This document shows, piece after piece, positions 6,286 to 32,000 of a stretch of 32,000 nt of DNA. The translations under genes and the position numbers were made by a program. The notes below the pieces were generated by a model that saw only the letters and a program-made list of their open reading frames with translations, made no database searches and had not been told where the DNA came from. Source of the DNA: Candidatus Nitrospira inopinata (GTDB lineage Bacteria; Nitrospirota; Nitrospiria; Nitrospirales; Nitrospiraceae); assembly GCF_001458695.1 (NCBI RefSeq), contig NZ_LN885086.1, forward strand, positions 1,200,001 to 1,232,000, read 5' to 3'. The stretch's first letter is position 1, and each line of letters opens with the position of its first letter.

Positions 6286-7515
6286 TTAGTGATGGACGGC
6301 TCGTTCGTCGGTGATCCGACGGTTGAAGACCGCGGTCAGGGTCTCAATCAATTTGTCGATGTCCCGCTCCGTGATGATCAACGGTGGAACGAATCGTAGG
6401 ACCCGTTCGCCGGTTGCGTTGACGAGCACGCCTCGGTTGAGACAATCCGCGACGATCGCCTTGGCGTCGGTGTCCAGCTCCATGCCCTGCAAGAGGCCGA
6501 GTCCCCGGACTTCCCGCACGATTCGATGGCGATCCTTGCACTCCGTCAGTCCTTTCGCCAAATAGTCGCCCATCCGCCTGGCGTGATCCAAAACGGGTCC
6601 CTCGATGAGGGTTCGAAGAACGGTCAACCCCGCGGCGCACGCCAGCGGATTTCCTCCGAAAGTCGAGGCGTGGGAGCTGGGGGTAAAGGCCGCCGCGACC
6701 GATTCCGTCGCCAAACACGCTCCGATCGGCACCCCTCCGCCCAATCCCTTGGCCAGGGTCATGATGTCGGGCTCCACGCCCATCTGTTGGTACGCGAAGA
6801 GCGTTCCGGTGCGGCCCATGCCCGTTTGCACTTCGTCGAAAACGAGCAGGATATCGTGTTTCGTGCAGAACTCGCGGAGTTCACGCAGGTAGGCTCGATC
6901 GGCGACGTGCACGCCCCCCTCTCCTTGGATCGGCTCCAGCATGACGGCGGCGGTTTGCTTACCGGCTGCGGCCTCAATCGCCGAGAAATCGTTGAAGGGA
7001 ACGTATCGAAAGCCCGGCATCAGCGGCTCAAATCCCTTCTGGACTTTGTCTTGTCCGGTCGCCGTGATGGTCGCCAACGTTCTGCCGTGAAACGAGTTGT
7101 GCATGGTGATGACTTCAAATCGGTCCGCGCCGTACTTTTGGTGCGCGTAGCGCCGGGCCAATTTGATGGCGGCCTCGTTGGCCTCCGCCCCGCTGTTGCA
7201 GAAGAACACGCGGTCGGCGAAGGAATGTTCGACCAGCGTCTTTGCCAGGTGGATCTGCGGTTCCGTGTAGTAGAGGTTGGAGACGTGGATCAATTGCATG
7301 GCTTGCCGGTGAATCGCGTGGACGAGGTCCGGGTGCGTGTGGCCGAGGACGTTGACCGCGATTCCTCCGACGAAGTCGAGGTACTCCCGGCCTTCCAGAT
7401 CGTAGACTTTTACGCCTTTCCCTCGAGCGATCGAGATGGGTTGACGGCTATACGTCTGCATCAGATATTTGGCGGCGGCTTCTTTCAATTCTTCGGTCAG
7501 CATGGTCAACGACAT
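6286..7515 (-). CDS. argD: acetylornithine aminotransferase (class III PLP aminotransferase)
   Basis: 409 aa. FFCNSGAEANEAAIKLAR, LVFDEVQTGMGRTG and TLAKGLGGG (PLP lysine). First gene of the arg block. The start could instead be the second in-frame ATG at 7503. Confidence 0.9.
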   Translation of the reverse strand: MSLTMLTEELKEAAAKYLMQTYSRQPISIARGKGVKVYDLEGREYLDFVGGIAVNVLGHTHPDLVHAIHRQAMQLIHVSNLYYTEPQIHLAKTLVEHSFADRVFFCNSGAEANEAAIKLARRYAHQKYGADRFEVITMHNSFHGRTLATITATGQDKVQKGFEPLMPGFRYVPFNDFSAIEAAAGKQTAAVMLEPIQGEGGVHVADRAYLRELREFCTKHDILLVFDEVQTGMGRTGTLFAYQQMGVEPDIMTLAKGLGGGVPIGACLATESVAAAFTPSSHASTFGGNPLACAAGLTVLRTLIEGPVLDHARRMGDYLAKGLTECKDRHRIVREVRGLGLLQGMELDTDAKAIVADCLNRGVLVNATGERVLRFVPPLIITERDIDKLIETLTAVFNRRITDERAVHH

Positions 7516-7682
7516 CCTGTGCGTGGAAAGAAACGGAAGCTAGCACAGGGCCGACGCGAAAGCAATAAGGCGAAGGTGAAGAAGGAACCCGAGAGGGATG
7601 ACCGGAGATGATCTGCCGATCGGTCTGCGGGAGAACCTTCCTTCTTTTTGATCCTCCGGGAGGTGTGATAAGCTGCGCCGCG

Positions 7683-8345
7683 ATGAAGTCCTGCGGCCGT
7701 TGCAGTCGGCAGAGTCCGGATGAGGCCAATTTTTGCCCGCAATGCGGGGCGCCGCTCGATGAGTCCGGCGGGCCCGAGACGGTGTCGGTCGATCAATCGA
7801 CCGCCGCGTCAAGTCAGGACGAGGAGACGCTCTGGCGGCTGTTCATCGGTCCCAATGCCGATCGCTACCTTGAAACGTTCAAGAAGTTTGCATCGAGCGG
7901 AGGACCGAGATTCGCTCTCTCCTGGAACTGGCCCGCGTTTCTCTATATTTCGTTTCTCTGGTTTCTCTACCGAAAGATGTATCTCCATGCGTTCGTTTAT
8001 GCCGTGGGCCCCATGGTGTCCGCCTACCTCACGGGCGATATGAGCGCCGGTCTTGTCTGGGGTATCATGGCCGGTGTGACGGGAAACTATCTGTACTATT
8101 GGCATTGCAGAGAGCACATTGAAAGGATTAAGAAGATCGGGGGGTTGAGCCAGGCCGATCGTGAAGCCGCCCTCAAGGAAGCCGGTGGGGTACAGCCCTA
8201 CGTCATCTGGGTCGGCGTTGCGTTATACATCCTCTTTTTTATCTCCCTTGCCAAGATGGCGCAAGAAGGAGCTCCGGATCGTGACGGCCGGCCGGCTAAG
8301 CAAGTCGAGTTCACGAGGGTGAAGGCGAGTCAAGGGTCCTCGTGA
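7683..8345 (+). CDS. zinc-ribbon plus DUF2628-like membrane protein
   Basis: MKSCGRCSRQSPDEANFCPQCGAPL is a CxxC...CxxC zinc ribbon. FALSWNWPAFLYISFLWFLYRKMY is the DUF2628 hallmark, and further hydrophobic helices follow. I trimmed the start to ATG 7683. The ORF-track start at 7608 adds an implausible leader. Confidence 0.75.
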   Translation: MKSCGRCSRQSPDEANFCPQCGAPLDESGGPETVSVDQSTAASSQDEETLWRLFIGPNADRYLETFKKFASSGGPRFALSWNWPAFLYISFLWFLYRKMYLHAFVYAVGPMVSAYLTGDMSAGLVWGIMAGVTGNYLYYWHCREHIERIKKIGGLSQADREAALKEAGGVQPYVIWVGVALYILFFISLAKMAQEGAPDRDGRPAKQVEFTRVKASQGSS

Positions 8346-10778: not shown

Positions 10779-11058
10779 GTGATAGAGCGTCCGCGGCCGG
10801 CACCGAATAGCCGGCCCTGCTTACCCCGACGTGTCGACCTCGGTTCGTCATTGCATGACCGTTGGTCATAACTACGAGTACGGTCAGGGTGCGCATGGTC
10901 CGAGTTTTTTGCCATGGCCGGCCTTGACGAAACGGGGTTTATCGAGTTGAATGTTAAAAAAGAGGCGGCCGGGGCAAGGTTCCTGGCGTCTTTCGGCTGG
11001 AGGGAGAAGGACGGATCGTTCAATCGTTCATAAGTCTTCACCGGGGGAGGTAAGAGAC

Positions 11059-11616
11059 ATGGTCGCATTCTCGGTTGTATTTATTCTCGTGGCCGCGCTC
11101 TTCCCGGGCGTCGCGGCAGCTCATGGTAATGTGGCGTTGGAAGACGATATCTGCGTGCGACGGGTGGGCGGCAATCTGGTCCATTTTAACGCGTATCAGC
11201 CTCAGCATGAGGCCAAGGCTCAATACTGTACGGAGATTCCCGGCGAAGGCGATACGTTTTTGGTGCTCGATCTGGTGGATCCGGTGTTGCGCACCTTGCC
11301 GGTGGGGGTTCGCGTGGTCAGAGGCACCGACGGGCTATCGGAGGAGCAGACGGTGGCCTATTGGCCTCCGGTCACTCATCCGGACGGCGTGCTTCGAGGG
11401 GAGGCAAATTTGAGCAAGGGGCTGTACACGTTCGTCATCATGCCGGAGGGATTCAGCCATTCGTCGTATCTGCTGCGGGTGCAGCAAGCGGATTATGGGA
11501 AGATCTCACAAAAGGCGGTGGGCCCTCTCATGATTCTCCTGCTCCTTGCGTTGATCGGGTATGAAATCTCGAAGTCGAGACGGTGGGGAGGTCGGAGGGC
11601 GCCGGGCCGGTCGTAA
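11059..11616 (+). CDS. secreted, C-terminally membrane-anchored protein, possible PmoD/AmoD-like cupredoxin protein
   Basis: GGGGGAGG SD then ATG 11059. Signal peptide MVAFSVVFILVAALFPGVAAA|HGN. About 130 aa mixed-composition domain (beta-rich is my guess) with two Cys. C-terminal TM helix GPLMILLLLALIGY followed by a basic tail. C32-x7-L40-x-H42 resembles the PmoD Cx7MxH motif as I recall it. Lies immediately upstream of amoC. The CDS call is solid. The family assignment is tentative. Confidence 0.6.
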   Translation: MVAFSVVFILVAALFPGVAAAHGNVALEDDICVRRVGGNLVHFNAYQPQHEAKAQYCTEIPGEGDTFLVLDLVDPVLRTLPVGVRVVRGTDGLSEEQTVAYWPPVTHPDGVLRGEANLSKGLYTFVIMPEGFSHSSYLLRVQQADYGKISQKAVGPLMILLLLALIGYEISKSRRWGGRRAPGRS

Positions 11617-11671
11617 CGGCCACATATGAGAATGCGGAGGCATGTTATCTTTCTACAAGGAGGGATTCATT

Positions 11672-12481
11672 ATGGCGGCAGAGCGGGGCTATGACATTTC
11701 GCAGTGGTATGATTCGCGGCCGTGGAAGATTGGGTGGTTTGCGATGTTGGCGATTGGGATTTTTTGGGTATTGTATCAGCGGACGTTTGGGTATTCGCAC
11801 GGGTTGGACTCGATGACGCCGGAGTTTGACGCGGTGTGGATGGGGTTGTGGCGGTTTAACATTGTGGCCAATGCGTTATTTTTTGCGATTGCGGTGGGGT
11901 GGATTTGGGTGACGCGGGATCGGAATTTGGCGAATTTGGATCCGAAGACGGAGTTGAAGCGGTATTTTTACTGGATGGGGTGGTTGGCCTGCTATGTGTG
12001 GGGGGTCTATTATGCGGGCAGTTACACATTGGAGCAGGATGCGGCGTGGCATCAGGTGATCATTCGGGACACGAGTTTTACGGCGAGTCACATTGTGGCG
12101 TTTTACGGGACATTCCCGTTGTACATTACGTGCGGGGTGTCGAGTTATCTGTATGCGCAGACGCGGTTACCGTTGTATAGCCAGGCGACGTCGTTTCCGT
12201 TGGTGGCGGCGGTGGTGGGGCCGATGTTCATCTTACCGAACGTGGGGCTCAATGAGTGGGGCCATGCGTTTTGGTTTGTGGACGAGTTGTTTGCGGCGCC
12301 GTTGCATTGGGGCTTTGTGACGTTGGGCTGGTGCGGGTTGTTTGGGGCGGCGGGCGGCGTGGCGGCGCAGATTGTGAGCCGCATGTCGAACTTGGCGGAT
12401 GTGATTTGGAACGGGGCGCCCAAGAGCATCCTGGATCCGTTCCCCAGCCAGGTCAACCCCAACGCCAAAGCAGGATACTGA
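11672..12481 (+). CDS. amoC: ammonia/methane monooxygenase subunit C family protein, stand-alone copy
   Basis: AAGGAGGG SD then ATG 11672. Reads [46 protein letters not shown]...[14 protein letters not shown]...[29 protein letters not shown], which are hallmark AmoC/PmoC blocks including the metal-site D/H/H region. No amoA or amoB within the window. Confidence 0.92.
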
Positions 12482-15239: not shown

Positions 15240-15919
15240 TGGGCCGGCCGGTCCTGATCGCCCCTTCCATCTTGTCCGCCGATTTCGCCCGACTGGCCGA
15301 TGAAGCGGCCGCGGTCGAACGGGCGGGGGCGGATCTGCTGCACGTCGACGTCATGGACGGGCACTTCGTGCCGAATTTGACGGTGGGGCCGCCGATCGTG
15401 CAGGCGCTGAAGAAGGAAACAAAACTCCCGCTCGACGTCCATTTGATGATTACGAACGCCGATGCGTTCGTAGGCGAGTTCGCCAAGGCGGGGGCGGATT
15501 ATCTGACCGTGCACGTGGAAGCCTGCCCGCATCTGCATCGGACGATTCAATCCATCAAAGAGCACGGCGTCAAAGCCGGTGTGACGTTGAACCCGGCGAC
15601 GCCGATTCATTCGTTGGAGGAAATCCTGCCGGACGTCGATCTGGTGTTGATTATGTCCGTCAATCCCGGCTTCGGCGGGCAGACCTTCATCGCGTCCTGT
15701 TTGTCCAAGATACGGGCCGTGCGAGGGATGCTGGATCGGATCGGCAGCCGCGCCTTGTTGGAGGTGGACGGCGGCGTGAAAATTGACAACGCGGCTGAGA
15801 TACTGGAGGCCGGGGCGGACGTTCTGGTCGCCGGCTCGGCGGTTTTTTCCAGTCCCGATTACGCCGCGACCATTGCCGCGTTGCGCGCCGCCGGACGGTC
15901 GGTTTCCGTTCATCCATAG
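15239..15919 (+). CDS. rpe: ribulose-phosphate 3-epimerase
   Basis: Start trimmed to ATG 15239, which overlaps the rsmB stop (TGATG). IAPSILSADFARL, HVDVMDGHFVPNLT and MSVNPGFGGQ are canonical Rpe motifs. Confidence 0.95.
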   Translation: MGRPVLIAPSILSADFARLADEAAAVERAGADLLHVDVMDGHFVPNLTVGPPIVQALKKETKLPLDVHLMITNADAFVGEFAKAGADYLTVHVEACPHLHRTIQSIKEHGVKAGVTLNPATPIHSLEEILPDVDLVLIMSVNPGFGGQTFIASCLSKIRAVRGMLDRIGSRALLEVDGGVKIDNAAEILEAGADVLVAGSAVFSSPDYAATIAALRAAGRSVSVHP

Positions 15920-15926
15920 GCGTTCG

Positions 15927-17492
15927 GTGGATACGACGTCTTCCTGCGACAATCTCCATCCCCTCGAAATCGCGGTGCTTGGGGTCTTTGGGGCTCATCC
16001 CGCCGGGGCCGCGCTCACAACGGAGCAACTCGCCGAGGCGACCAAACTCGAATCATCTCAACTGAGCATGGCGATCGAGTGGCTGTTGGCGAAACAGCTC
16101 CTCGCGGTCACTTCTGAAACGGTCACGTCGGTCGTGTCGTTGACGGCGGTGGGAAAGACCTACGTTGAGCGGTCCTCGCCGCTGGATTGCGTCCTGTCCG
16201 CCGCGCGAGAGGCCTCGAGCACGGGGAAGCGGCTGACGATCGCCGATCTTCAGACGAAAGAGGAGCTTGAGCCGTCCGACGTCAGCAAGGCGGTGGGCCG
16301 TCTCAAAAAAGAGGGGGCGCTTCTGGTCGTGCAAGGCGGCTGTCTTGAGTCCACCGGCAGGCCAAGTCTTTCCGTCGAGGCGATGCGCGCGCTGCTCCGT
16401 GAGCTTGATGAAGGGCCTCGCCCGCTGGAAAGTTTCCCGGAGGTCCAGCGGGCGCTCATTCACGATTACGCGGTGAAGCGAGGAAGCGCCAGGGAACCGT
16501 TTCGAATCGAGGAGCGCGCGACGCGATCCTACACGTTGTCTCAGGCGGGCGCGGCGGCGGTCACCGCGCTTGCCGGTCAGGCCAAAGCGGAGGAAGTCGC
16601 GCAGCTCAGTCCCGACTTGCTCAAGGACGGCAGTTGGAGATCGAAGCGGTTCCGAAAGTACACCATCAGCCTGCGCCCGCCTCGGATCGCAGCCGGCAAG
16701 AAGCATCCGTATCGTGAGTTTCTGGACGCGGTCAAGCTCAAGTTGGTCAGCATGGGTTTTCAGGAGATGCGCGGCTCGCTCGTCGAGACCGAATTTTGGA
16801 ACATGGACGCGCTGTTTATGCCCCAATTCCACCCGGCCCGCGACATTCACGACGTCTATTTCGTCAAAGAACCGGCGCGCGCGTCGGCGGTTGCCGAGCC
16901 TTTTTTCTCGCGCGTGGCCGCGACGCATGAACACGGCGGGACGACCGGATCGACCGGCTGGGGGTATCGGTTCGATCCGGAGCGGGCGAAGCGGTTGGTG
17001 TTGCGGAGTCAAGGCACGGCGGTGTCGGCCAGGACCCTCGCCTTGTCGCCTTCGGTGCCAGGCAAATATTTTTCGATCGCGCGGTGCTTTCGCTACGATC
17101 AAGTGGATGCGACCCATGCGACGGATTTTTTTCAAGTCGAGGGAATCGTCTTGGGCGAGGACATCAACTTCCGCACGCTGTTGGGATTGCTGAATCTGTT
17201 CGCCCGGGAGGTCGCCCAGGCGAAAGAGGTGAAGTTCGTGCCCGCCTATTTTCCGTTTACGGAACCGTCGGTCGAACTCCACGTCCGTCATCCCCGGTTG
17301 GGCTGGATGGAGCTGGGCGGGGCCGGTCTGTTCAGACCCGAGGTCACTCAACCCCTTGGAGTAACGGTGCCGGTGATCGCCTGGGGGCTGGGGTTGGACC
17401 GTATGGCGATGGTGGCGCTCGGCGTTCACGATATCCGCGAGCTGTTCACCGATAACTTGGATCTGATCCGCACGACCAGAGGAGCGTTTTAG
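15927..17492 (+). CDS. pheS: phenylalanine--tRNA ligase alpha subunit, archaeal/eukaryal-type (long form)
   Basis: About 521 aa from GTG 15927, which is 8 nt after the rpe stop. Long N-terminal region where archaeal/eukaryal alpha subunits carry winged-helix-like repeats. FWNMDALFMPQFHPARD, PAYFPFTEPSVEL, GWMELGGAGLFRPEV and IAWGLGLDRMAM. The AWGLGLxR block and the length resemble archaeal/eukaryal rather than bacterial PheS (about 330-350 aa, GFAFGMGxER). Confidence 0.88.
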   Translation: MDTTSSCDNLHPLEIAVLGVFGAHPAGAALTTEQLAEATKLESSQLSMAIEWLLAKQLLAVTSETVTSVVSLTAVGKTYVERSSPLDCVLSAAREASSTGKRLTIADLQTKEELEPSDVSKAVGRLKKEGALLVVQGGCLESTGRPSLSVEAMRALLRELDEGPRPLESFPEVQRALIHDYAVKRGSAREPFRIEERATRSYTLSQAGAAAVTALAGQAKAEEVAQLSPDLLKDGSWRSKRFRKYTISLRPPRIAAGKKHPYREFLDAVKLKLVSMGFQEMRGSLVETEFWNMDALFMPQFHPARDIHDVYFVKEPARASAVAEPFFSRVAATHEHGGTTGSTGWGYRFDPERAKRLVLRSQGTAVSARTLALSPSVPGKYFSIARCFRYDQVDATHATDFFQVEGIVLGEDINFRTLLGLLNLFAREVAQAKEVKFVPAYFPFTEPSVELHVRHPRLGWMELGGAGLFRPEVTQPLGVTVPVIAWGLGLDRMAMVALGVHDIRELFTDNLDLIRTTRGAF

Positions 17493-17500
17493 GCGACGCC

Positions 17501-19216
17501 ATGCCCACGATCTCCATCTTCAAGAGCGATTTGGAATCGTTGCTCGGAGCTCCCGGTGAGCCGCGCACGGTCTCGATCGATGAGCTGCAGGAGCGGCTCA
17601 CCCTCGTGAAAGGCGAGGTGAAGGGGTATCAGGCGGACACCGGAGAGTTACGCGTTGAGTTGCAGGACAGCAATCGTCCGGATCTCTGGTGTTGCGAGGG
17701 GATCGCGCGACAAATCCGCGTCAAGCTCGGCGGGACGGCGAAGCCCTATCCTTTTTTATCCAAGCAGCCCGGGCGATTGCCGCAACTGCTCGTCGCCCCG
17801 GGGCTCGATCGTGTGCGCCCCTATGTCGCCGCGTGCGCCGCCACGGGTTATCGGGTCACGGAGCAGGGGTTGGCCCAGCTCATTCAGACGCAGGAGAAGC
17901 TGGCGGACATCTTCGGGCACAAGCGGAAGACGGTCTCGATCGGCATCTATCGGCTTCAGAAGATCCGCTTCCCCGTCACCTACGAGTTGGCGAGTCCGGA
18001 CGACGTGCGGTTCACCCCCTTGGGGATGGACACGGCGATGACCCTCTCGGAAATACTCATGGTCCATCCCAAGGGACTGGAGTACGGGTCCATCTTGGCG
18101 GGACAAAGCCGCCTGCCTCTGCTGCGGGACGCGGATCATCGGCCTCTGTCGTTTCCTCCGATCATCAACAGCCGGGAGATCGGAGAGGTGCTGGTCGGGG
18201 ATGACGAGTTGTTCGTCGAGGTGACGGGGACCGATGCCGCGATGGTCGTGTTGACGTTGAACATCTTTGCCGTCAACTTGGCGGATCGAGGGGCTGCGAT
18301 CCAGCCGATCGCGGTGCGCTACCCATATGAAACTCCGTTCGGCAAACGTGTGGTCACGCCGCGCGACATCGGACGCCCGCGAGGAATTCAAATCGAGACG
18401 ATTGAACGGGCCTTGGGTCAAGAACTCGGGGCGACGGTCGTCAAAGAGGCGCTCGAAGCCTACGGGTATCACGTCTCGACAGGAAAAAAATCGGTCACGG
18501 TCAAGTTGCCGCCCTATCGGCAGGATCTGATGCACGCCATGGACGTGGTCGAGGACGTGGCGATGAGCCTCGGCTACGGGGCGTTTTCACCGGAAATGCC
18601 GTCGCAATTTACCGTCGGGGGGCTGTCTCGAATTGAACAACTCTCGGATCGGGCGCGGGAGTTGATGGTCGGGCTCGGGTTTCAGGAGATTATTTCCAAT
18701 ATCCTCGGCTCTCCCGACCACTACCGTGACGCGATGCGGTTGGAGGGAACGGAGTGGGGGAAGATGGTGGAAGTCCGCAACGTGATGTCTTCAAGTTTCA
18801 GTTGCCTCCGCCAGTGGATGATTCCCTCGCTGCTGCGGGTCGAAGCGGCGTCGGCCCGATCGTTCTATCCCCACCGTCTGTTTGAAGCCGGCGAGGTGGC
18901 GATTTTTGATTCGGCGCACGACGTCGGTTCCCGCACGGAGACGGTGCTGGGGGCGATGATTGCCCACGCCGCGGCCCATTTTTCCGAGATCCACTCCTGC
19001 TTGGACGCTTGCCTCTATTACTTGGGCAAGACGTACGGTCTGGAGCCGATCCCGCATCCGTCGTTTCTCGACGGTCGCGTCGGAACGATCGTCGTCTCCG
19101 GAACGGCGATCGGTTTGATCGGCGAAATTCATCCGGAAGTTCTCGAACGTTGGCAAATCGCCATGCCGGTCGTCGCGTTCGAGGTGAATCTTTCCCGGCT
19201 TGAGCATCTGGTCTAA
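17501..19216 (+). CDS. pheT: phenylalanine--tRNA ligase beta subunit, archaeal/eukaryal-type (short form)
   Basis: 571 aa, against about 790-800 aa for bacterial PheT. The N-terminus MPTISIFKSDLESLLG...RVELQDSNRPDLWCCEGIARQIR matches the archaeal PheT pattern. It follows pheS after 8 nt. Confidence 0.88.
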   Translation: MPTISIFKSDLESLLGAPGEPRTVSIDELQERLTLVKGEVKGYQADTGELRVELQDSNRPDLWCCEGIARQIRVKLGGTAKPYPFLSKQPGRLPQLLVAPGLDRVRPYVAACAATGYRVTEQGLAQLIQTQEKLADIFGHKRKTVSIGIYRLQKIRFPVTYELASPDDVRFTPLGMDTAMTLSEILMVHPKGLEYGSILAGQSRLPLLRDADHRPLSFPPIINSREIGEVLVGDDELFVEVTGTDAAMVVLTLNIFAVNLADRGAAIQPIAVRYPYETPFGKRVVTPRDIGRPRGIQIETIERALGQELGATVVKEALEAYGYHVSTGKKSVTVKLPPYRQDLMHAMDVVEDVAMSLGYGAFSPEMPSQFTVGGLSRIEQLSDRARELMVGLGFQEIISNILGSPDHYRDAMRLEGTEWGKMVEVRNVMSSSFSCLRQWMIPSLLRVEAASARSFYPHRLFEAGEVAIFDSAHDVGSRTETVLGAMIAHAAAHFSEIHSCLDACLYYLGKTYGLEPIPHPSFLDGRVGTIVVSGTAIGLIGEIHPEVLERWQIAMPVVAFEVNLSRLEHLV

Positions 19217-25323: not shown

Positions 25324-25773
25324 ATGAAAGTATCCCGGCGGGCCCTGTACGGCATCATGGCTGCCATTGATCTTGCGATCCATGGGAAAGAAGTTCCAGT
25401 GCAAGCTCGATCGATTGCGAGACGCCAGGCGATCCCGATTAAATTTTTGGAGCAAGTCCTCCTCGCCCTGAAGAAAGGAGGATTGGTCCACAGTTTACGA
25501 GGGGCGCACGGTGGATACAGACTCGTTAAAGAACCATCCGCTTTGTCGGTCGCCGATATTCTCGAAGTGCTCGACGGCCCGGTTTTCCACTCTGGCGCCT
25601 CGAACGGCTTTCCCGCCAAAGGGCATCAGTCCAAGCAGGAGCTCCTTCTTGGCCATATCTGGAAGCAGGTCGCCCAGGCCGAGCACGATGTTCTTCAGCG
25701 GATCAGGATCGACCAGTTGGCCGAACGGCAACGGGCGATCGAGGGGCGATATACCCCCATGTATCACATTTAA
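25324..25773 (+). CDS. Rrf2-family transcriptional regulator lacking the Fe-S cysteines (CymR-like)
   Basis: MKVSRRALYGIMAAIDLA...ARSIARRQAIPIKFLEQVLLALKKGGLVHSLRGAHGGYRL is the Rrf2 winged HTH. The whole 149-aa protein contains no Cys, so it cannot bind a cluster the way IscR or NsrR do. It lies directly upstream of the sulfate-assimilation genes. Confidence 0.85.
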   Translation: MKVSRRALYGIMAAIDLAIHGKEVPVQARSIARRQAIPIKFLEQVLLALKKGGLVHSLRGAHGGYRLVKEPSALSVADILEVLDGPVFHSGASNGFPAKGHQSKQELLLGHIWKQVAQAEHDVLQRIRIDQLAERQRAIEGRYTPMYHI

Positions 25774-25847
25774 CCGCGAGAGTGCGTATCAGGTTTCCGG
25801 AGAGGATGGATGCGTCGGTCTCATTGTCGCCAAGAGGAGATGCCCCA

Positions 25848-28352
25848 ATGACTCCCCAACAACTGAAAACGGTCGAGGTCGTGACGACTCCCATTCCGCC
25901 CGCCATTGCCGAAGAAATTGAAACGTTCGAGGCCGAGGCCCTTCGGTGTCTGGCCGGCGACCTTTCTTCGGATCTTTTTAAGCCGTTCCGCCTCCAGTTC
26001 GGCATTTATGGGCAGCGGCAATCCGGGGTCCAGATGGTGCGGGTCAAAATCCCCTTTGGAGGCATTTCGGCCAATCAGCTTCGCCGCCTCGCCGAGTTGG
26101 TCGATCGGTATGCCACCGGCGTCGGTCACGTGACGACGCGGCAGGATATCCAGATGCATTTCGTCGAGCTCAAAGACGTGCCGACGATCATGCGCGGGCT
26201 GGCGGAAGTCGGCCTGACGACCAGAGAGGCCTGTTCCAATACGGTCCGGAACGTGACCGCCTGCCACTTGGCCGGCGTCTGTCGGAGCGAGGTGTTTGAC
26301 GTGACGCCGTATGCCAAAACAGTGGCGTATCATCTCCTTCGCAATCCGCTCAACCAGAGCTTGCCCCGCAAGTTCAAGATCGCCTTTTCCGGATGCGCGC
26401 ACGATTGCGCCGTGACTCCCATTCACGACATCGGGCTCATGGCCGTCAAACGGGAGGACGGGGCCGTCGGTTTTCGGATGGTGGCCGGCGGAGGGTTGGG
26501 GCCGCTGCCTCGGATGGCCAAGGTGCTGCGAGAGTTTACGCCGATGGACGAACTGATCCCCAGCATCGAAGCGGTGATCAAAGTCTTCGATGCCTTGGGG
26601 AATCGAAAAAACCGCCACAAGGCCCGCATGAAGTTCGTCATCGACAAGTTGGGGTTTGAAGAATTCAAGCGACGGTGGGAAGCGGCGTATGCGGCCTTGG
26701 GGTACAACCTGCCTGCGGATCGGCCGATCCGACTGCTCCATCATGACGATCGACCGGTTCCACTGATCATGCCGACCAGGAGCGGATCGGCTTCCAATGG
26801 CACGCCCGCCAACGGACATCGCGAGGACGATCATGAAACGTCCTTTCAGACGTGGAAGCGGACCAACGTGATTCCGCAGAAGCAGGAAGGCTACGTCACG
26901 GTCGTGATCAAACTCTTCATGGGAGACATCACGGCGGACCAAATGCGGTGGGTGGCGGATCTTGCCGAGCGGTATTCCAACGGCAATCTCCGAACGACGA
27001 TTCATCAAAACCTCGTGATCCGATGGATTCCTGAAGACCGGATCGAAGCCTTGTATCAGGACCTGGCGCTTCAGGGGCTGGCCGATCCGGGAGCCGAGCA
27101 CGTTGAAGACATCATCGCCTGCCCCGGCACCGATACATGCGGCCTGGGCATCACCTCGTCCAAAGGGATGGCTCGGGGGCTGGCCGAGATTTTCCCGGCC
27201 GGACGAGTGCCGGACGATCTGGCCGGAGTCACCGTCAAGATCAGCGGTTGCCATAATTCCTGCGCCCAGCACCACATCGCGACGATCGGACTGCACGGCG
27301 TCGGCAAACGGATCGGAGACCATACGCTGCCCATGTATGAACTGCATCTCGGGGGCAAGGTGAACGGCACAGCCAAGATCGGGCAGATGACCGTCAAACT
27401 GCCCGCCAAGGCGGTTCCGGCGGCCGTTACGCATTTGATCGACGTGTATCGGAGGGACCGCAAACCGGGCGAAACGATGCCGGCGTTCATCGACCGCGTC
27501 GGGAAAAACGACCTGAAGGACGAACTCATTCCCTATACCATCGTTCCCTCTTACGAGGAGGACTCTACGTTTTATTACGACTGGGAAGGGGATGACCCCT
27601 TTGTGCTCGAAGACCATGGCCCCGGCGAGTGCGCCGGAGGCGCCCTCGAAATGATCGAAAACGGAATTTTGGAAGCCGATCAAGAGCTCTATTTGGCAAG
27701 GCTCCACGTCGAAAAGCACCAGTACGCGGTGGCGGTGAACAAAGCGTATCGAGCCGTGTTGGCCGCCGCGAAAGCTCTGTTGGTGACGGAAGGGCTCGAT
27801 CCCTCGACCGACTCCGAAACGCTCGGTGAATTCGACGCCCGCATCGCCCAGAAGGGCGTCGTCCCCGCGCAGTATCGAGACCTTGGCGGGCAGGTCGGCG
27901 ATCTGGGAAGCAAAGAGAGCGGCGAACCATTCGCCAGGGAAAAAATCGCGTTTGCGAAGGGCTTTGTGGATGCCTGCCGGGCCGCGACGGAGCGCATGGG
28001 CAAAGATCTCAAGTTGGCGCCGACCGCCGAGACCGCGACGGCGACTTCAACGGCCGAGCCGCAACGGAAACCGGAACCCAAGTCGGAACTTGTCTCTCCC
28101 CCTTCGGCTCCGGCCGACGTTCCCGTGTACGACCTGCGGGGCGTGGCTTGTCCGATGAACTACGTCAAAACCAAGCTGAAGCTCGAAATGATGGAGGCGG
28201 GCGAGCGGCTCGAAGTTTGGTTGGATGCCGGTGAGCCGATCAAGAACGTGCCGATGAGCCTCAAGAATGATGGGCATAAGGTGCTGTGGGAAGAGGCGCT
28301 GGAGCCGGAAGCGACGCACTATCGGCTGTTGGTCGAGAAGGTCGGGGACTAG
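25848..28352 (+). CDS. sir: siroheme/[4Fe-4S] sulfite (nitrite/sulfite family) reductase fused to a helical domain and a C-terminal TusA/SirA-like domain
   Basis: Start at ATG 25848 (AGGAG SD 10 nt upstream). Two nitrite/sulfite-reductase repeats, each with Cx5C...Cx3C: TACHLAGVC...SGCAHDC at 26262-26408 and ACPGTDTC...SGCHNSC at 27120-27263. An Ala/Leu/Glu-rich, probably helical region of about 130 aa follows (about 27620-28020), then a Pro/Thr/Ala linker. The C-terminus VYDLRGVACPMNYVKTKLKLEMMEAGERLEVWLDAGEPIKNVPMSLKNDGHKVL is a TusA-like fold with its Cys codon at 28149-28151. Sulfite rather than nitrite as substrate is inferred from the cysH/cysDN context. Confidence 0.85.
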   Translation: MTPQQLKTVEVVTTPIPPAIAEEIETFEAEALRCLAGDLSSDLFKPFRLQFGIYGQRQSGVQMVRVKIPFGGISANQLRRLAELVDRYATGVGHVTTRQDIQMHFVELKDVPTIMRGLAEVGLTTREACSNTVRNVTACHLAGVCRSEVFDVTPYAKTVAYHLLRNPLNQSLPRKFKIAFSGCAHDCAVTPIHDIGLMAVKREDGAVGFRMVAGGGLGPLPRMAKVLREFTPMDELIPSIEAVIKVFDALGNRKNRHKARMKFVIDKLGFEEFKRRWEAAYAALGYNLPADRPIRLLHHDDRPVPLIMPTRSGSASNGTPANGHREDDHETSFQTWKRTNVIPQKQEGYVTVVIKLFMGDITADQMRWVADLAERYSNGNLRTTIHQNLVIRWIPEDRIEALYQDLALQGLADPGAEHVEDIIACPGTDTCGLGITSSKGMARGLAEIFPAGRVPDDLAGVTVKISGCHNSCAQHHIATIGLHGVGKRIGDHTLPMYELHLGGKVNGTAKIGQMTVKLPAKAVPAAVTHLIDVYRRDRKPGETMPAFIDRVGKNDLKDELIPYTIVPSYEEDSTFYYDWEGDDPFVLEDHGPGECAGGALEMIENGILEADQELYLARLHVEKHQYAVAVNKAYRAVLAAAKALLVTEGLDPSTDSETLGEFDARIAQKGVVPAQYRDLGGQVGDLGSKESGEPFAREKIAFAKGFVDACRAATERMGKDLKLAPTAETATATSTAEPQRKPEPKSELVSPPSAPADVPVYDLRGVACPMNYVKTKLKLEMMEAGERLEVWLDAGEPIKNVPMSLKNDGHKVLWEEALEPEATHYRLLVEKVGD

Positions 28353-28374: not shown

Positions 28375-29091
28375 ATGACGGACAGCCAAAATTCGGACAT
28401 CGCCGGCCGCCTTCGTTCGTGGGGCGAGTCGTTTGAAGCAAAACCGCCGCAAGAGGTGCTGGCGGCCGCCATCGAGCGGTATGCGCCAAACATCGTCCTC
28501 GCCTGTAGTTTCGGCGCGGAAGACGTGGTGTTGGTGGACATGATCCATCGGATCAATGCCTCCGTGCCGCTGTTCTATTTGGATACGGAGTTTCTCTTTC
28601 CGGAAACGTATGCGACGAGAGATCGCGTCATCGAGCGATACGGACTGGCGCCGGCACAGGTGATCCAGGTCAAATCCTTGCTGACGCCGGAACAACAAGC
28701 GCGGCAATACGGCGAGGCGCTGTGGTCCAAAGATCCGGACCTCTGCTGCCGATTGCGGAAAGTCGAGCCGCTCGCCGGAATGCTCAAAAAATTCGATGCG
28801 TGGATTACCGGTATTCGCCGTGAGCAGGCTCTCTCCAGAGCCGACGCCGGTCTCATCGAGTGGGATGCCAAGTTCGGCCTGGTCAAAGTCAATCCGCTGG
28901 CGCGGTGGACCTGGGCCGACGTGTGGACCTACATCAAGGTCTATGAAGTGCCGTACAACCCCCTCCATGACAGGAACTACCCGAGTATCGGTTGCACCCA
29001 TTGCACCAAGCCGGTGAGTCCGGGAGAGGACTTGCGCGCCGGTCGCTGGCAAGGCCACGCGAAAACCGAGTGCGGCTTGCATCGGTCGTGA
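28375..29091 (+). CDS. cysH: adenylylsulfate (APS) reductase, thioredoxin-dependent, Fe-S type CysH
   Basis: ACSFGAEDVVLVDM, TGIRREQ, and a C-terminal ECGLH. It also has the CC (DLCCRLRK) and CxxC (GCTHCTK) pairs that mark [4Fe-4S] APS reductases rather than PAPS reductases. Start at ATG 28375, with an in-frame TTG at 28369 also possible. Confidence 0.9.
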   Translation: MTDSQNSDIAGRLRSWGESFEAKPPQEVLAAAIERYAPNIVLACSFGAEDVVLVDMIHRINASVPLFYLDTEFLFPETYATRDRVIERYGLAPAQVIQVKSLLTPEQQARQYGEALWSKDPDLCCRLRKVEPLAGMLKKFDAWITGIRREQALSRADAGLIEWDAKFGLVKVNPLARWTWADVWTYIKVYEVPYNPLHDRNYPSIGCTHCTKPVSPGEDLRAGRWQGHAKTECGLHRS

Positions 29092-29092
29092 C

Positions 29093-30133
29093 ATGACGTT
29101 TCAGGACATCCTCGCCAAAATCGCCAAGGGTCCCAAGACGTCCAAGGATTTGACGTGGGATGAAACCAAGCGGGCGATGAGAGCCCTCATCGAAGGCGAA
29201 GCGACTCCGGCCCAAACGGGAGCCTTCTTGATCGCCATGCGATTTAAGTCGGAATCGGTCGCGGAATTGGCGGGCATGACGGCCGCCGTGAGACATTATG
29301 TGCCTCCTCTCGCGGTTCCGAAAGAAATCGCCCTCGTCGATGTGCCGACCTATGCGGGCAAACAGGACACCTTCCATGCGCTGGTGGCCGCCTCCATTGT
29401 CGCCGCTTCCGCCGGGGCTACGGTGCTGATGCACGGCTACGACGGGATTCCCGGAAGGCCTGGCAGCGCCGGGGTGCTGAAGGCGATGGGTATCCCGATC
29501 GATTCCACCCCGCGCGCCGTGACCGAGGATCTGCTCAAGAAGGGGTTCGCATATCTGGATATCGGCATCTATCATCCGGCGGTCTATCGATTTCTGGAGA
29601 TGCGACAGGAGCTGGGCGTGAGGAACGTCTTTCATCCGATCGCCAGATTGCTCAACCCGGCTCGCGCTTCCGCGCAGGTGGTCGGACTGTCGCATCCCCC
29701 GCATTTCGAGAAAACGGCCGAAGCGTTGCGCATGCTCGGTTGCCCGAGGGGGTTCGTCATTCGCGGGGTCGAGGGCGATCCGGAACTCTCCCTGTCGGCG
29801 GTGACCAGGGTGTTGGAACTGAGGGATGAGCGTATCACGCCTTTGGGAGTGGCTCCCAAGGATTTCGGGCTGGCGCTCGGTTCTTCGCGGGAGATGGCGG
29901 GCTTTCCGCCGGATCAACGGGACAGGGAAGCGGAGCTGCTCCACCGTATTCTTCAGCATCAGGTGCAGGGGGGACCCAAGGAATGGGTTCTGATGAACGC
30001 GGCGATGTTGCTGTACGCGGCGGGAAAGGGGCAATCGCTCTCGGCCTGCTACCCCCGGGCCAAGGCGGCGCTTGAAGGGGGAGCGGCGGCTCGGAAATTA
30101 GAAGAGTTGACCCGGGAAACGGTGGGGGCTTAG
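29093..30133 (+). CDS. anthranilate phosphoribosyltransferase (TrpD)/glycosyltransferase family 3-like protein with degenerate active-site motifs
   Basis: 346 aa, collinear with TrpD over the full length ([36 protein letters not shown]..., [44 protein letters not shown]). The PRPP-binding GTGGD is replaced by PTYAGKQD (about 29347-29370), and KHGNR...SKSGSADVLEALG is replaced by [21 protein letters not shown]. The ATG begins 1 nt after the cysH stop. Confidence 0.8.
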
Positions 30134-30155: not shown

Positions 30156-30986
30156 TTGAGTTCGGATGAGACGAAAGGACGTAAAACGGTGAAACATCTG
30201 CATTGGTTGGAAGACCAAAGCGTGTACATCCTTCGGGAGGCCTACAAGCACTTTGACAACCTGGCCATGCTGTGGTCGATCGGGAAGGATTCGACCGTTC
30301 TATTGTGGTTGGTCCGCAAGGCGTTTTTCGGCCATGTTCCGTTCCCGCTGATCCACATCGACACCAGCTACAAGATTCCCGCCATGATCGAGTACCGAGA
30401 CCGATTGGCCCGCGAGTGGCGGTTGAATTTGGTCGTGGGCCAGAACAAGGAGGCGCTGGCGGCCGGGATGAATCACACGATGGGACGCGACGTCTGTTGC
30501 ACGGCGCTCAAGACGATGGCGTTAAAAAATCTGATCGAGTCGAAAGGGTACACCGGCATCATTTTGGGCGTGCGCGCCGATGAAGACAGCACCAGGGCCA
30601 AAGAGCGATACTTCTCGCCCCGCGACAAACACGGAGACTGGGATTTCCGCGATCAGCCGCCGGAACTGTGGAACCAGTTCAAAACGACGTTCCCGCCGGG
30701 GACCCATATCCGAATCCACCCTCTGCTTGATTGGACGGAAGTCAACATCTGGGAATACATCAAGGCCGAGAATATCCCCTTTATCGATCTGTACTTGGAC
30801 AAGGGGGACGGCACACGCTACCGGAGTCTGGGGTGCGCTCCCTGCACGACGCCCGTAAAGTCCACCGCCAAGACGGTGGATGAGATCATCGAAGAGCTGC
30901 GGGCGACGAATATCGCGGAACGGGCCGGACGAGCCCAGGACGCGGGACGCGGCATGGAGATGCTCCGGAAGAAAGGGTACATGTAA
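30156..30986 (+). CDS. cysD: sulfate adenylyltransferase subunit 2
   Basis: [34 protein letters not shown] (PP-loop), [27 protein letters not shown]. Start is either TTG 30156 or GTG 30189 (VKHLHWLE), unresolved. Confidence 0.92.
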
Positions 30987-32000
30987 TGGACGAGGCGACG
31001 GCAGCGGCGGCGCGAGCCGCTTCGAAACCGGACGAACATTTCAACATCGTCATTGTCGGTCACGTGGACCACGGAAAGTCCACGCTCGTGGGACGGCTCT
31101 ATGCGGATACCGGGTCGTTGCCGGAGGGCAAATTGGAGAAGGTGCAGGCGATCTGCCGCCAGCAGGGGAAAGAATTCGAGTACGCGTTCCTGTTCGATGC
31201 GTTCTTGGAGGAGCAGGAGCAGGGCATCACGATCGATACGGCGCGGACGTTTTTTATTTGGAAGGGACGGCAGTACATCATCATCGACGCGCCGGGCCAC
31301 AAGGAATTCCTTAAAAACATGATCTCCGGCGCGGCCAGGGCCGAGGCGGCGCTCCTCGTGATCGACGCCCTCGAGGGGGTCAAAGAGCAGTCCAAAAAAC
31401 ACGGGTATTTGCTGTCTCTGCTCGGGGTTCGCCAGTTCGCGGTCGTCGTCAACAAGATGGACCTGGTCGGCTATCGGCAGGACGTCTTCGACGGCATTGA
31501 GAAAGAGTATCGGGAGTTTCTCGGGCAGTTCGGCGCGATCCCCGAACGGATTATTCCCGTGAGCGCCAAGCTCGGCGACAACATTGCCGACCGCAGCCGG
31601 GCCATGCCGTGGTACGGGGGACCGACCGTCCTGGACACCCTCAGCCTCTTTAAAAAAGAAACGGCCTCGGCCGATCAGCCTCTGCGATTTCCCGTTCAGG
31701 ACGTGTACAAGTTTGATGCGCGTCGCATCATCGCGGGCCGCATCACGGCCGGCCGTCTGAAAGTCGGCGACCAACTGATCTTCTCTCCTTCGAACAAGCG
31801 GGCCAACGTCAAATCGATCGAAGCGTTCAACGTCGAGCCCCTTCCGATGAGCGCCGAGGCGGGCCAATCCATCGGCGTGACCCTCGATGAGCAGATCTTC
31901 GTGGAGCGGGGGGAAATCGCCGCCCATCCAAGCGGCCTGCCCCACGTCTCAACGTCGTTCAAGGCCAACCTGTTTTGGCTGGGCAAGCGACCGCTGGAGC
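30986..32000 (+). CDS. cysN: sulfate adenylyltransferase subunit 1 (GTPase), 5' part only, runs off the right window edge
   Basis: Absent from the ORF track because it is open-ended. ATG 30986 overlaps the cysD stop (TAATG). Hand translation gives [38 protein letters not shown]...ITIDTAR...[11 protein letters not shown]...VVVNKMDLV..., that is G1/G3/G4 motifs of the EF-Tu-like CysN family. Whether a CysC kinase domain is fused at the C-terminus cannot be seen. Confidence 0.9.

Follow-up and report, generated by a model that had tools for sequence, protein, structure and literature searches.

A siroheme sulfite reductase with a tethered TusA-like domain in Candidatus Nitrospira inopinata: architecture and a tentative route for carrier-bound sulfur

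In the textbook view, sulfate assimilation ends when the sulfide made by sulfite reductase reaches cysteine synthase by free diffusion. A gene at positions 25848..28352 (+ strand) of a stretch of 32,000 nucleotides (nt) from Candidatus Nitrospira inopinata (contig NZ_LN885086.1, positions 1,200,001 to 1,232,000; hereafter the window, whose own numbering is used for its features) raises the question of whether the reduced sulfur could instead be handed on in protein-bound form. The gene encodes 834 amino acids (aa), ending at a TAG stop (28350-28352), in which a siroheme sulfite reductase (SiR) core is followed by a HEPN-like domain, a linker and a TusA domain. An earlier reading of this DNA, made from its letters only (the sequence-only reading), had suggested such a hand-off. 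Our own answer, to which we assign a probability of roughly 45%, is that the protein would be an assimilatory SiR with a tethered carrier that passes its product as a persulfide to acceptors, an answer in which the architecture is observed and the mechanism is one that we infer.

A single gene for a four-part protein

The open reading frame (ORF) of the fusion runs uninterrupted on the + strand from either a GTG at 25782 or an ATG at 25848 to position 28352 (all features of this gene and of its operon given below lie on the same strand). A Shine-Dalgarno sequence, AGGAG, read from the sequence at 25835..25839, is placed 8 nt 5' of the ATG, and the length of 834 aa is matched by independent gene calls for the identical fusion protein.

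It could be argued that so long an ORF is an artefact of assembly or annotation, with two or three genes merged through a missed stop or a frameshift. Against this, independent assemblies (JGI, NCBI GCA_001458755.1 and Logan) contain the identical 834-aa protein on at least 23 contigs, and all 120 of the best homologues (76-99% identity) have 817-838 aa and an unchanged Pfam architecture. When the last 260 aa were used as a query against 1.84 billion representatives, 368 proteins matched with E <= 1e-10, and among the best 150 of these 368, 59 are full-length (690-902 aa) and are matched in their C-terminal part. The same order of domains recurs in hundreds of full-length homologues across several phyla, and the short matches to the extension all still begin in the end of the reductase core. 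The existence of stand-alone HEPN-TusA proteins was considered as well and rejected, each of these short matches being a fragment. The sequence-only reading had described one ORF that passes the reductase core without a stop, with the core ending at about 27600, and had named the surroundings of 27600 and 28100 as places where a missed stop or frameshift might hide. The contigs and the 120 homologues agree with the continuous ORF, no missed stop or frameshift is present at either place, with homologues and independent assemblies concordant, and we find the core to end near aa 575-585, which corresponds to about nt 27600. It is clear that the gene encodes a real four-part protein; the probability that we leave to an artefact is negligible.

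Reductase core, junction, linker and TusA-like domain

The Pfam profiles NIR_SIR (E 3.7e-58) and NIR_SIR_ferr (E 1.7e-40) each match twice and delimit a tandem two-repeat core. The N-terminal NIR_SIR_ferr and NIR_SIR repeat (25995..26717, aa ~50-290) holds the basic substrate-binding residues, and the C-terminal one (26841..27557, aa ~332-570) holds the canonical siroheme-[4Fe-4S] ligands. These ligands follow the CX5C...CX3C pattern (C425, C431, C468 and C472, at nt 27120-27263) and are invariant in 60/60 divergent representatives of the family, which share ~30% identity, as well as in 121/121 Nitrospira sequences. In the N-terminal repeat, R174-K175-F-K177 (nt 26367-26378) forms a K-x-K motif of the sulfite reductase type. 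The segment 'prkfkiaf' aligns with 'prkwnvcv' of tobacco nitrite reductase and with 'prkwkpcv' of its N226K mutant, so that plant nitrite reductase has K-x-N at the position of K175-x-K177 and the N226K mutant mimics a sulfite reductase. In 95/95 sequences neither K175 nor K177 varies. Since K175-x-K177 is invariant and the gene lies in a cysH/cysD/cysN operon, sulfite rather than nitrite is supported as the substrate, and the core is best read as an assimilatory, ferredoxin-type siroheme SiR.

The closest relatives by sequence are tobacco nitrite reductase (3b0h, E 5.7e-60), Mycobacterium tuberculosis NirA (1zj8, E 9e-46) and maize SiR. A whole-protein AlphaFold2 (AF2) model has a mean predicted local distance difference test score (pLDDT) of 81.8 and a predicted template modelling score of 0.70, and by predicted fold the closest relative in Foldseek is again M. 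tuberculosis NirA (1zj8, E 5e-34, template modelling score (TM) 0.80), with TM values of 0.76-0.81 to NirA, nitrite reductase and SiRHP. With M. tuberculosis NirA/SirA (1zj8) and plant SiR (5h8v) the fusion has in common the two-repeat core, the CX5C...CX3C ligands and the K-x-K motif, and its place in a cysH/cysDN operon is that of a ferredoxin-dependent assimilatory SiR. It is, however, only ~26% identical to NirA and plant SiR, and it stays below the NCBIfam cut-offs for NirA (NF007126, 297 vs 523), sir (TIGR02042, 127 vs 731.5) and CysI (TIGR02041, 138 vs 756.6), as well as for dsrB (84.8 vs 341.5) and dsrA (40.1 vs 392.9); no DsrC-like domain was found in the protein. Because its scores are below every curated NCBIfam equivalog cut-off, we treat the fusion as a separate reductase subfamily. 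The 260-aa C-terminal extension (G-E-C loop, HEPN, linker and TusA) is without a counterpart in any solved sulfite or nitrite reductase.

A further difference from NirA and plant SiR, shared by Nitrospira and roughly half the family, is a second four-cysteine motif in the N-terminal repeat (C139-x5-C145...C183-x3-C187, 26262..26408). It is a complete CX5C-X37-CX3C, pseudo-symmetric to the canonical ligands, and an alignment of the two internal repeats pairs C139/145/183/187 with C425/431/468/472; C129 also lies in this region. The motif is invariant in the 121 Nitrospira sequences and is carried by only 26-33 of the 60 family representatives. Among solved relatives, the residue-level alignment was inspected for plant nitrite reductases alone, and these have no Cys at these positions. 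The motif may bind an additional, putative [4Fe-4S] cluster, much as each half of DsrAB holds one. Such a site is likelier than a second catalytic site, because the other half of the core has no equivalents of the basic substrate residues.

The core is joined to its extension by the motif D578-W579...F585...G593-E594-C595 (27579..27632, with C595 at nt 27630-27632), which, including C595, is invariant in 60/60 and 95/95 sequences. C595, in the G-E-C part of the motif, is the second invariant cysteine outside the core and had been overlooked by the sequence-only reading. Directly after it pLDDT falls below 50 (aa 596-599), which suggests that the loop is mobile. The following residues (aa 599-715, 27642..27992) are modelled as four long helices, with a pLDDT of 84 for the domain alone, and are assigned to the HEPN fold by Pfam and Foldseek. 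The Pfam match (HEPN, PF05168, aa 608-655) is marginal (24.3 bits, cut-off 22), whereas the five top Foldseek matches are all HEPN proteins (2hsb, 1o3u, 1wol, 1ufb and 4nqf), the best being 2hsb with E 8e-4, TM 0.78 and a root-mean-square deviation of 2.5 A. A profile of the domain gave nothing significant against PDB sequences (best HEPN match E 0.43), so within the PDB it was fold comparison alone that identified the HEPN relationship. The domain shares the four-helix up-down bundle of AF_0298 (2hsb), TM0613 (1o3u) and ST0689 (1wol) at TM 0.70-0.78; unlike these proteins, it has no partner nucleotidyltransferase, it lies between a reductase and a TusA domain, and its family does not keep the R-x4-6-H motif of HEPN RNases (R618...H624 in the query, with columns across the family that are mixed E/K/R and mostly gaps). 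An RNase function of the HEPN type was rejected on the ground of this unconserved motif, and for the same reason the domain is best seen as a scaffold or spacer.

Between the helical bundle and the C-terminal domain lies a flexible linker (28017..28124, aa 724-759) that is rich in Ala, Thr, Pro and Glu. It is disordered in the model, with a pLDDT below 50 over aa 729-756. Across the family it is A/E/P/K-rich and varies in length from 11 to 44 aa, and among the Nitrospira homologues it has only 22% identity to the query, compared to 82% for the core and 90% for the TusA domain, which is the best conserved segment. The linker looks like a swinging arm.

The TusA/SirA-like domain itself (28125..28343, aa 760-832; Pfam TusA, E 5.2e-17) matches PF01206 over aa 761-831 (61.9 bits, cut-off 28.6), an alignment that takes in positions 3-70 of the 70 in the profile. 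The AF2 model gives aa 760-830 a beta-alpha-beta-alpha-beta-beta two-layer sandwich with pLDDT > 90 and TM 0.77-0.80 to E. coli TusA/YhhP (1dcj, 3lvj_C). At the N-terminus of helix 1, C768 (28149-28151), in the motif C-P-M-N, aligns with the reactive CPxP cysteine of TM0983, YedF and YeeD. The canonical C-P-x-P was not found in this domain; the motif is C-P-x-N with an invariant Asn771, and C768, P769 and N771 are each invariant in 60/60 divergent representatives and 121/121 Nitrospira sequences. In E. coli, TusA takes persulfide sulfur over from IscS and conveys it to TusBCD and to the synthesis of molybdopterin. The fold and the reactive Cys are common to the domain and to E. coli TusA (1dcj, 3lvj), TM0983 (1jdq), YedF (1je3) and YeeD/TsuB (8j4c), whereas these known TusA proteins are free, of ~80 aa and with CPxP, and here TusA is a domain of an 834-aa enzyme whose sulfur source would be the reductase, not a cysteine desulfurase.

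Most of this domain structure had been anticipated by the sequence-only reading. Its two-repeat siroheme core agrees with the two Pfam repeats, the second four-Cys motif having escaped it. Its helical domain of about 130 aa turned out to be a four-helix bundle of a fold, HEPN, that it had not recognised, and its Pro/Thr/Ala/Glu linker is found in the disordered aa 724-759 with matching composition. The TusA-like domain with CPxN in place of CPxP is borne out by a Pfam score above cut-off and by the fold, the position of its ACPMN motif (28146-28160, aa 767-771) is exact, and the conservation of its Cys among homologous fusions, on which the proposal depended, holds throughout the sequences counted above.

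Two invariant cysteines outside the core, one on a mobile domain (C768) and one on a low-confidence loop (C595), are also what would be expected if the extension served as a DsrC-like co-substrate. In such a scheme, an assimilatory counterpart of DsrAB-DsrC, the TusA Cys, with C595, would enter the active site and attack partly reduced, siroheme-bound sulfur, so that a 4-electron reduction would give a persulfide or a C595-S-C768 trisulfide and the last two electrons would be supplied downstream. Proteins of the TusA type carry their sulfur as a persulfide, and the scheme resolves the mismatch between sulfide and persulfide redox states that is discussed below. The fusion does resemble DsrAB/DsrC in belonging to the siroheme superfamily, in having cluster motifs in both pseudo-symmetric halves (DsrA and DsrB in that system) and, as an idea, in handing the sulfur of the active site to a protein partner with two cysteines. 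It is unlike DsrAB/DsrC in being a single polypeptide in an assimilatory context, and the extension has no kinship to DsrC in sequence or fold. The scores with the dsrA and dsrB profiles are far under their cut-offs, and the core is closest to enzymes that complete the full 6-electron reduction with no partner (M. tuberculosis NirA, plant SiR and nitrite reductase). We regard a DsrC-like role as decidedly unlikely.

Gene context in Nitrospira and in distant relatives

The genes in the window are ordered Rrf2, SiR-TusA fusion, cysH, trpD-like, cysD and cysN, and we compared this order across 80 loci obtained from a profile search with a 9-sequence alignment, all of them from Nitrospira or Nitrospiraceae. 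Directly 5' of the fusion is an Rrf2-family regulator (CymR/IscR-like, 25324..25773; Pfam Rrf2, E 2.3e-28), which scores above the NCBIfam cut-off for rrf2_super and below that for CymR (93.7); it is upstream of the fusion in 74/80 loci and was found also in L082 (Deltaproteobacteria), L084 (Terriglobales) and L090 (Nitrospinota). The cysH gene (28375..29091; Pfam PAPS_reduct, E 5e-50) begins 22 nt after the fusion stop, scores 269 against a cut-off of 154 as NCBIfam phosphoadenylyl-sulfate reductase and adjoins the fusion in 78/80 loci. Its product contains 'DLCCRLRK' and 'GCTHC', the CC...CxxC pattern typical of Fe-S adenylyl sulfate (APS) reductases, and the pathway probably runs from APS to sulfite directly; NCBIfam separates the APS and 3'-phosphoadenylyl sulfate (PAPS) types poorly here. 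The trpD-like gene (glycosyl transferase family 3, 29093..30133; Pfam Glycos_transf_3 and Glycos_trans_3N) is just above the TIGR01245 trpD cut-off (210 vs 199); it lies between cysH and cysD in 77/80 loci and is absent from the non-Nitrospira cys loci examined. The small subunit of sulfate adenylyltransferase, cysD (30156..30986; NCBIfam CysD, 362 bits vs 195), is present in 77/80 loci. It is followed in 69/80 by cysN, of which the window holds the 5' part (30986..32000, extending beyond the window; NCBIfam CysN/CysNC, E 1e-88 to 1e-91) with an ATG that overlaps the cysD stop.

The taxonomic spread of the fusion, named as a point to check by the sequence-only reading, covers at least eight bacterial phyla or classes, with taxonomy taken from the source names of database entries. 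The fusion occurs in Nitrospira (including N. moscoviensis and Ca. N. nitrificans), other Nitrospirota, Nitrospinota, Chrysiogenetes, Omnitrophota, Spirochaetota, Calditrichota, Deltaproteobacteria and Terriglobales (Acidobacteria). The database names of these proteins are generic, such as 'sulfurtransferase TusA family protein', 'HEPN domain-containing protein' or 'sulfite reductase (ferredoxin)', and because the fusion is widespread and has been annotated automatically, it is not unique to this genome. NCBIfam contains no curated family that covers the architecture, PDB sequence and Foldseek searches returned no solved structure of it, and we know of no biochemical characterisation of the fusion.

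In two distant clades, ThiS, MetY, ThiF and JAB genes cluster with SiR-TusA, and precede it in this order, in 6/6 loci examined. After the fusion these loci have cysH-cysD-cysNC (in L089 cysH only) or, in some of them, other genes, for siroheme synthesis, homocysteine synthesis or a second ThiS-ThiF set. The order in the Deltaproteobacteria (L082/L083) is Rrf2, a PALP-family (CysM-like) gene, ThiS, a MetY-like gene, ThiF, JAB, SiR-TusA, DUF2061, cysH, cysD and cysNC, and similar clusters are found in Terriglobales (L084/L085), Spirochaetia (L088) and Calditrichota (L089). The Omnitrophota locus (L086) adds a ThiS-PALP fusion and siroheme synthesis genes to the cluster, and a metagenome contig (L081) has ThiS, ThiF, a JAB-SiR-TusA four-part fusion, a ThiI-like gene and HcyBio/NIL-ferredoxin homocysteine genes. 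The additional N-terminal Prok-JAB domain is seen in JAB-SiR-HEPN-TusA proteins of 928-940 aa (P0367 and P0405; gene 2509-5331 on L081).

Some further features of these loci may be recorded. In L086 a gene at 6634-7770, directly upstream of SiR-TusA, joins ThiS to a PALP (cysteine-synthase-like) enzyme, where the junction reads '...YYMGGG', and a second, free ThiS with a ThiF lies downstream. A DUF2061 protein of 76 aa is encoded between SiR-TusA and cysH in L082 (10367-10597), L083 (5623-5853) and L088 (10354-10584).

The ThiS proteins encoded nearby continue for some residues past GG and therefore need trimming by JAB. The neighbouring ThiF proteins are short (267-276 aa) and have no rhodanese domain. 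In known systems, ThiS, MoaD and CysO receive sulfur via acyl-persulfides from ThiI and rhodanese domains; since the ThiF proteins of these loci are without a rhodanese domain, the set lacks a persulfide donor unless TusA fills this role. The linkage of ThiS, rhodanese-less ThiF and JAB suggests, as circumstantial support, that the distant fusions are tied to protein-thiocarboxylate sulfur transfer.

Comparable sets of genes have reportedly been described as HcyS-HcyF-HcyD-MetY-Sir in Wolinella succinogenes by Krishnamoorthy and Begley (JACS 2011) and as CysO-MoeZ-Mec-CysM in M. tuberculosis by Burns et al. (JACS 2005). In the W. succinogenes scheme, free bisulfide from Sir is said to attack the HcyS acyl-adenylate, with no role for a TusA domain of the reductase. 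Relatives of our fusion in five phyla and on one metagenome contig have ThiS-like, MetY, ThiF-like, JAB and SiR genes in the order of the HcyS system, and the ThiS of the distant loci, with GG and extra residues, is like HcyS-Ala. The Nitrospira operon in the window, unlike the HcyS system, is without ThiS, ThiF, JAB and MetY.

The adjacency of cysH to the fusion would also fit a role on the substrate side of the reductase, in which the TusA Cys and C595 would act as a thiol reductant that frees sulfite from the S-sulfocysteine of CysH and channels it to the reductase, or would bind or split thiosulfate as in YeeD/TsuB. Besides the 78/80 Nitrospira loci, cysH adjoins the fusion in L082, L088, L089, L090 and L091; the gene between cysH and the fusion in L090 belongs to the TauE sulfite-exporter family; the TusA domain resembles YedF and YeeD too; and plant APS reductases have a fused thiol-reductant domain. 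Any sulfite reductase would, however, be expected beside cysH, TusA does not have a thioredoxin fold, and a substrate-side role leaves both the ThiS/ThiF/JAB linkage and the JAB fusions unexplained, so we hold it to be very unlikely. The membrane protein in L090 (TauE/SafE family, the sulfite exporter family) is encoded at 7186-7962, between cysH and SiR-TusA.

A proposed sulfur hand-off and its weight

In the scheme that we favour, with a tethered carrier passing on the product of an assimilatory SiR, sulfite from the adjacent APS/PAPS reductase would be reduced at the siroheme-[4Fe-4S] site of the C-terminal repeat, and the reduced sulfur would not be released but captured as a persulfide on Cys768 of the tethered TusA domain, with C595 as the partner or resolving thiol for C768. 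In a balanced version, a C595-C768 disulfide would react with HS- to give C768-S-SH and C595-SH. C768-S-SH would then attack the ThiS acyl-adenylate to form an acyl-persulfide, which C595 would resolve to ThiS-COSH with regeneration of the disulfide, a sequence of steps that parallels ThiI and rhodanese chemistry. The TusA domain would swing to deliver sulfur to its acceptors, and in many lineages the acceptor would most likely be a ThiS/CysO/HcyS-type carrier adenylated by a rhodanese-less ThiF-like enzyme. The resulting protein thiocarboxylate could then be used by MetY- or CysM-type enzymes for the formation of homocysteine or cysteine.

The protein-bound hand-off put forward by the sequence-only reading gains from the invariant Cys, the arm-like linker and the ThiS/ThiF/JAB context of distant relatives, and it loses from the lack of any of these three genes near the fusion in Nitrospira. 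Several points weigh against the scheme. No ThiS, ThiF, JAB, MetY or PALP-family (CysM-like) gene was found within 8 kb of the fusion in any of the 80 Nitrospira loci, and none was found in the 32-kb window by tblastn at E <= 0.01; the acceptor of the sulfur in Nitrospira is not encoded nearby, which is the main weakness of the scheme for the window. In the clade nearest Nitrospira, the gene orders are cysH-TauE-fusion in L090 (Nitrospinota) and cysH-fusion-sat in L091, with no ThiS/ThiF/JAB nearby in either, and in L092-L094 the fusion gene is solitary. On the chemical side, the product that leaves a siroheme reductase is sulfide (S2-) but the cargo of TusA is sulfane sulfur (S0), and because of this mismatch the scheme has to include either an additional redox step or the interception of an intermediate. 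With CPxN instead of CPxP, the domain may also behave unlike TusA. Finally, we infer persulfide carriage, the interplay of C595 with C768 and the acceptor from support that is circumstantial.

Some of the same observations would fit an extension that has no sulfur chemistry at all, with HEPN and TusA forming a module for docking, oligomerisation or regulation (it might recruit ferredoxin or cysteine synthase, for instance) and with cysteines that are structural or redox-sensing. The loss of the catalytic R-x4-6-H means that at least the HEPN domain is non-enzymatic, and the change from CPxP to CPxN and the clade nearest Nitrospira with no carrier-protein genes nearby point in the same direction. 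The invariance of C768 and C595 at ~30% identity is hard to square with docking alone, as is the linkage to ThiS, ThiF and JAB, and we consider such a passive module highly improbable.

Set beside the tethered-carrier scheme, a bolder form of it can be formulated in which the SiR would never free sulfide, and C768 and C595 would take the siroheme sulfur as a persulfide or trisulfide directly into carrier-based synthesis of cysteine, homocysteine or cofactors. This would be the assimilatory analogue of the DsrAB-DsrC mechanism, and a putative second [4Fe-4S] cluster of the N-terminal repeat might supply the thiol chemistry with electrons in the half or so of the family, including Nitrospira, that has the motif. 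We judge this form rather unlikely.

Elsewhere in the window, an AmoC gene (11642-12481, +; Pfam E 1.7e-105) stands with no amoA or amoB beside it and is preceded by an ORF of 221 aa without a Pfam match (10951-11616); an orphan amoC copy in a Nitrospira genome points to a complete ammonia oxidiser (comammox). The alpha and beta subunits of phenylalanyl-tRNA synthetase (15783-19216, +) are archaeal/eukaryotic-looking, unlike the usual bacterial PheST, with an alpha subunit of 569 aa that has an N-terminal winged-helix region and a beta subunit of 571 aa with B5 and tRNA_synthFbeta domains.

That a carrier tethered to the reductase is conserved in at least eight phyla or classes suggests that the product of sulfite reduction travels protected and bound to protein. 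If the tethered-carrier scheme is true, the fusion would be a mechanistic bridge from assimilatory reductases to DsrAB-DsrC, and it would provide the missing persulfide donor for rhodanese-less ThiF in cysteine and methionine pathways of the ThiS/HcyS type. It would also be of relevance for organisms such as Nitrospira, in which low levels of free sulfide may be a necessity.

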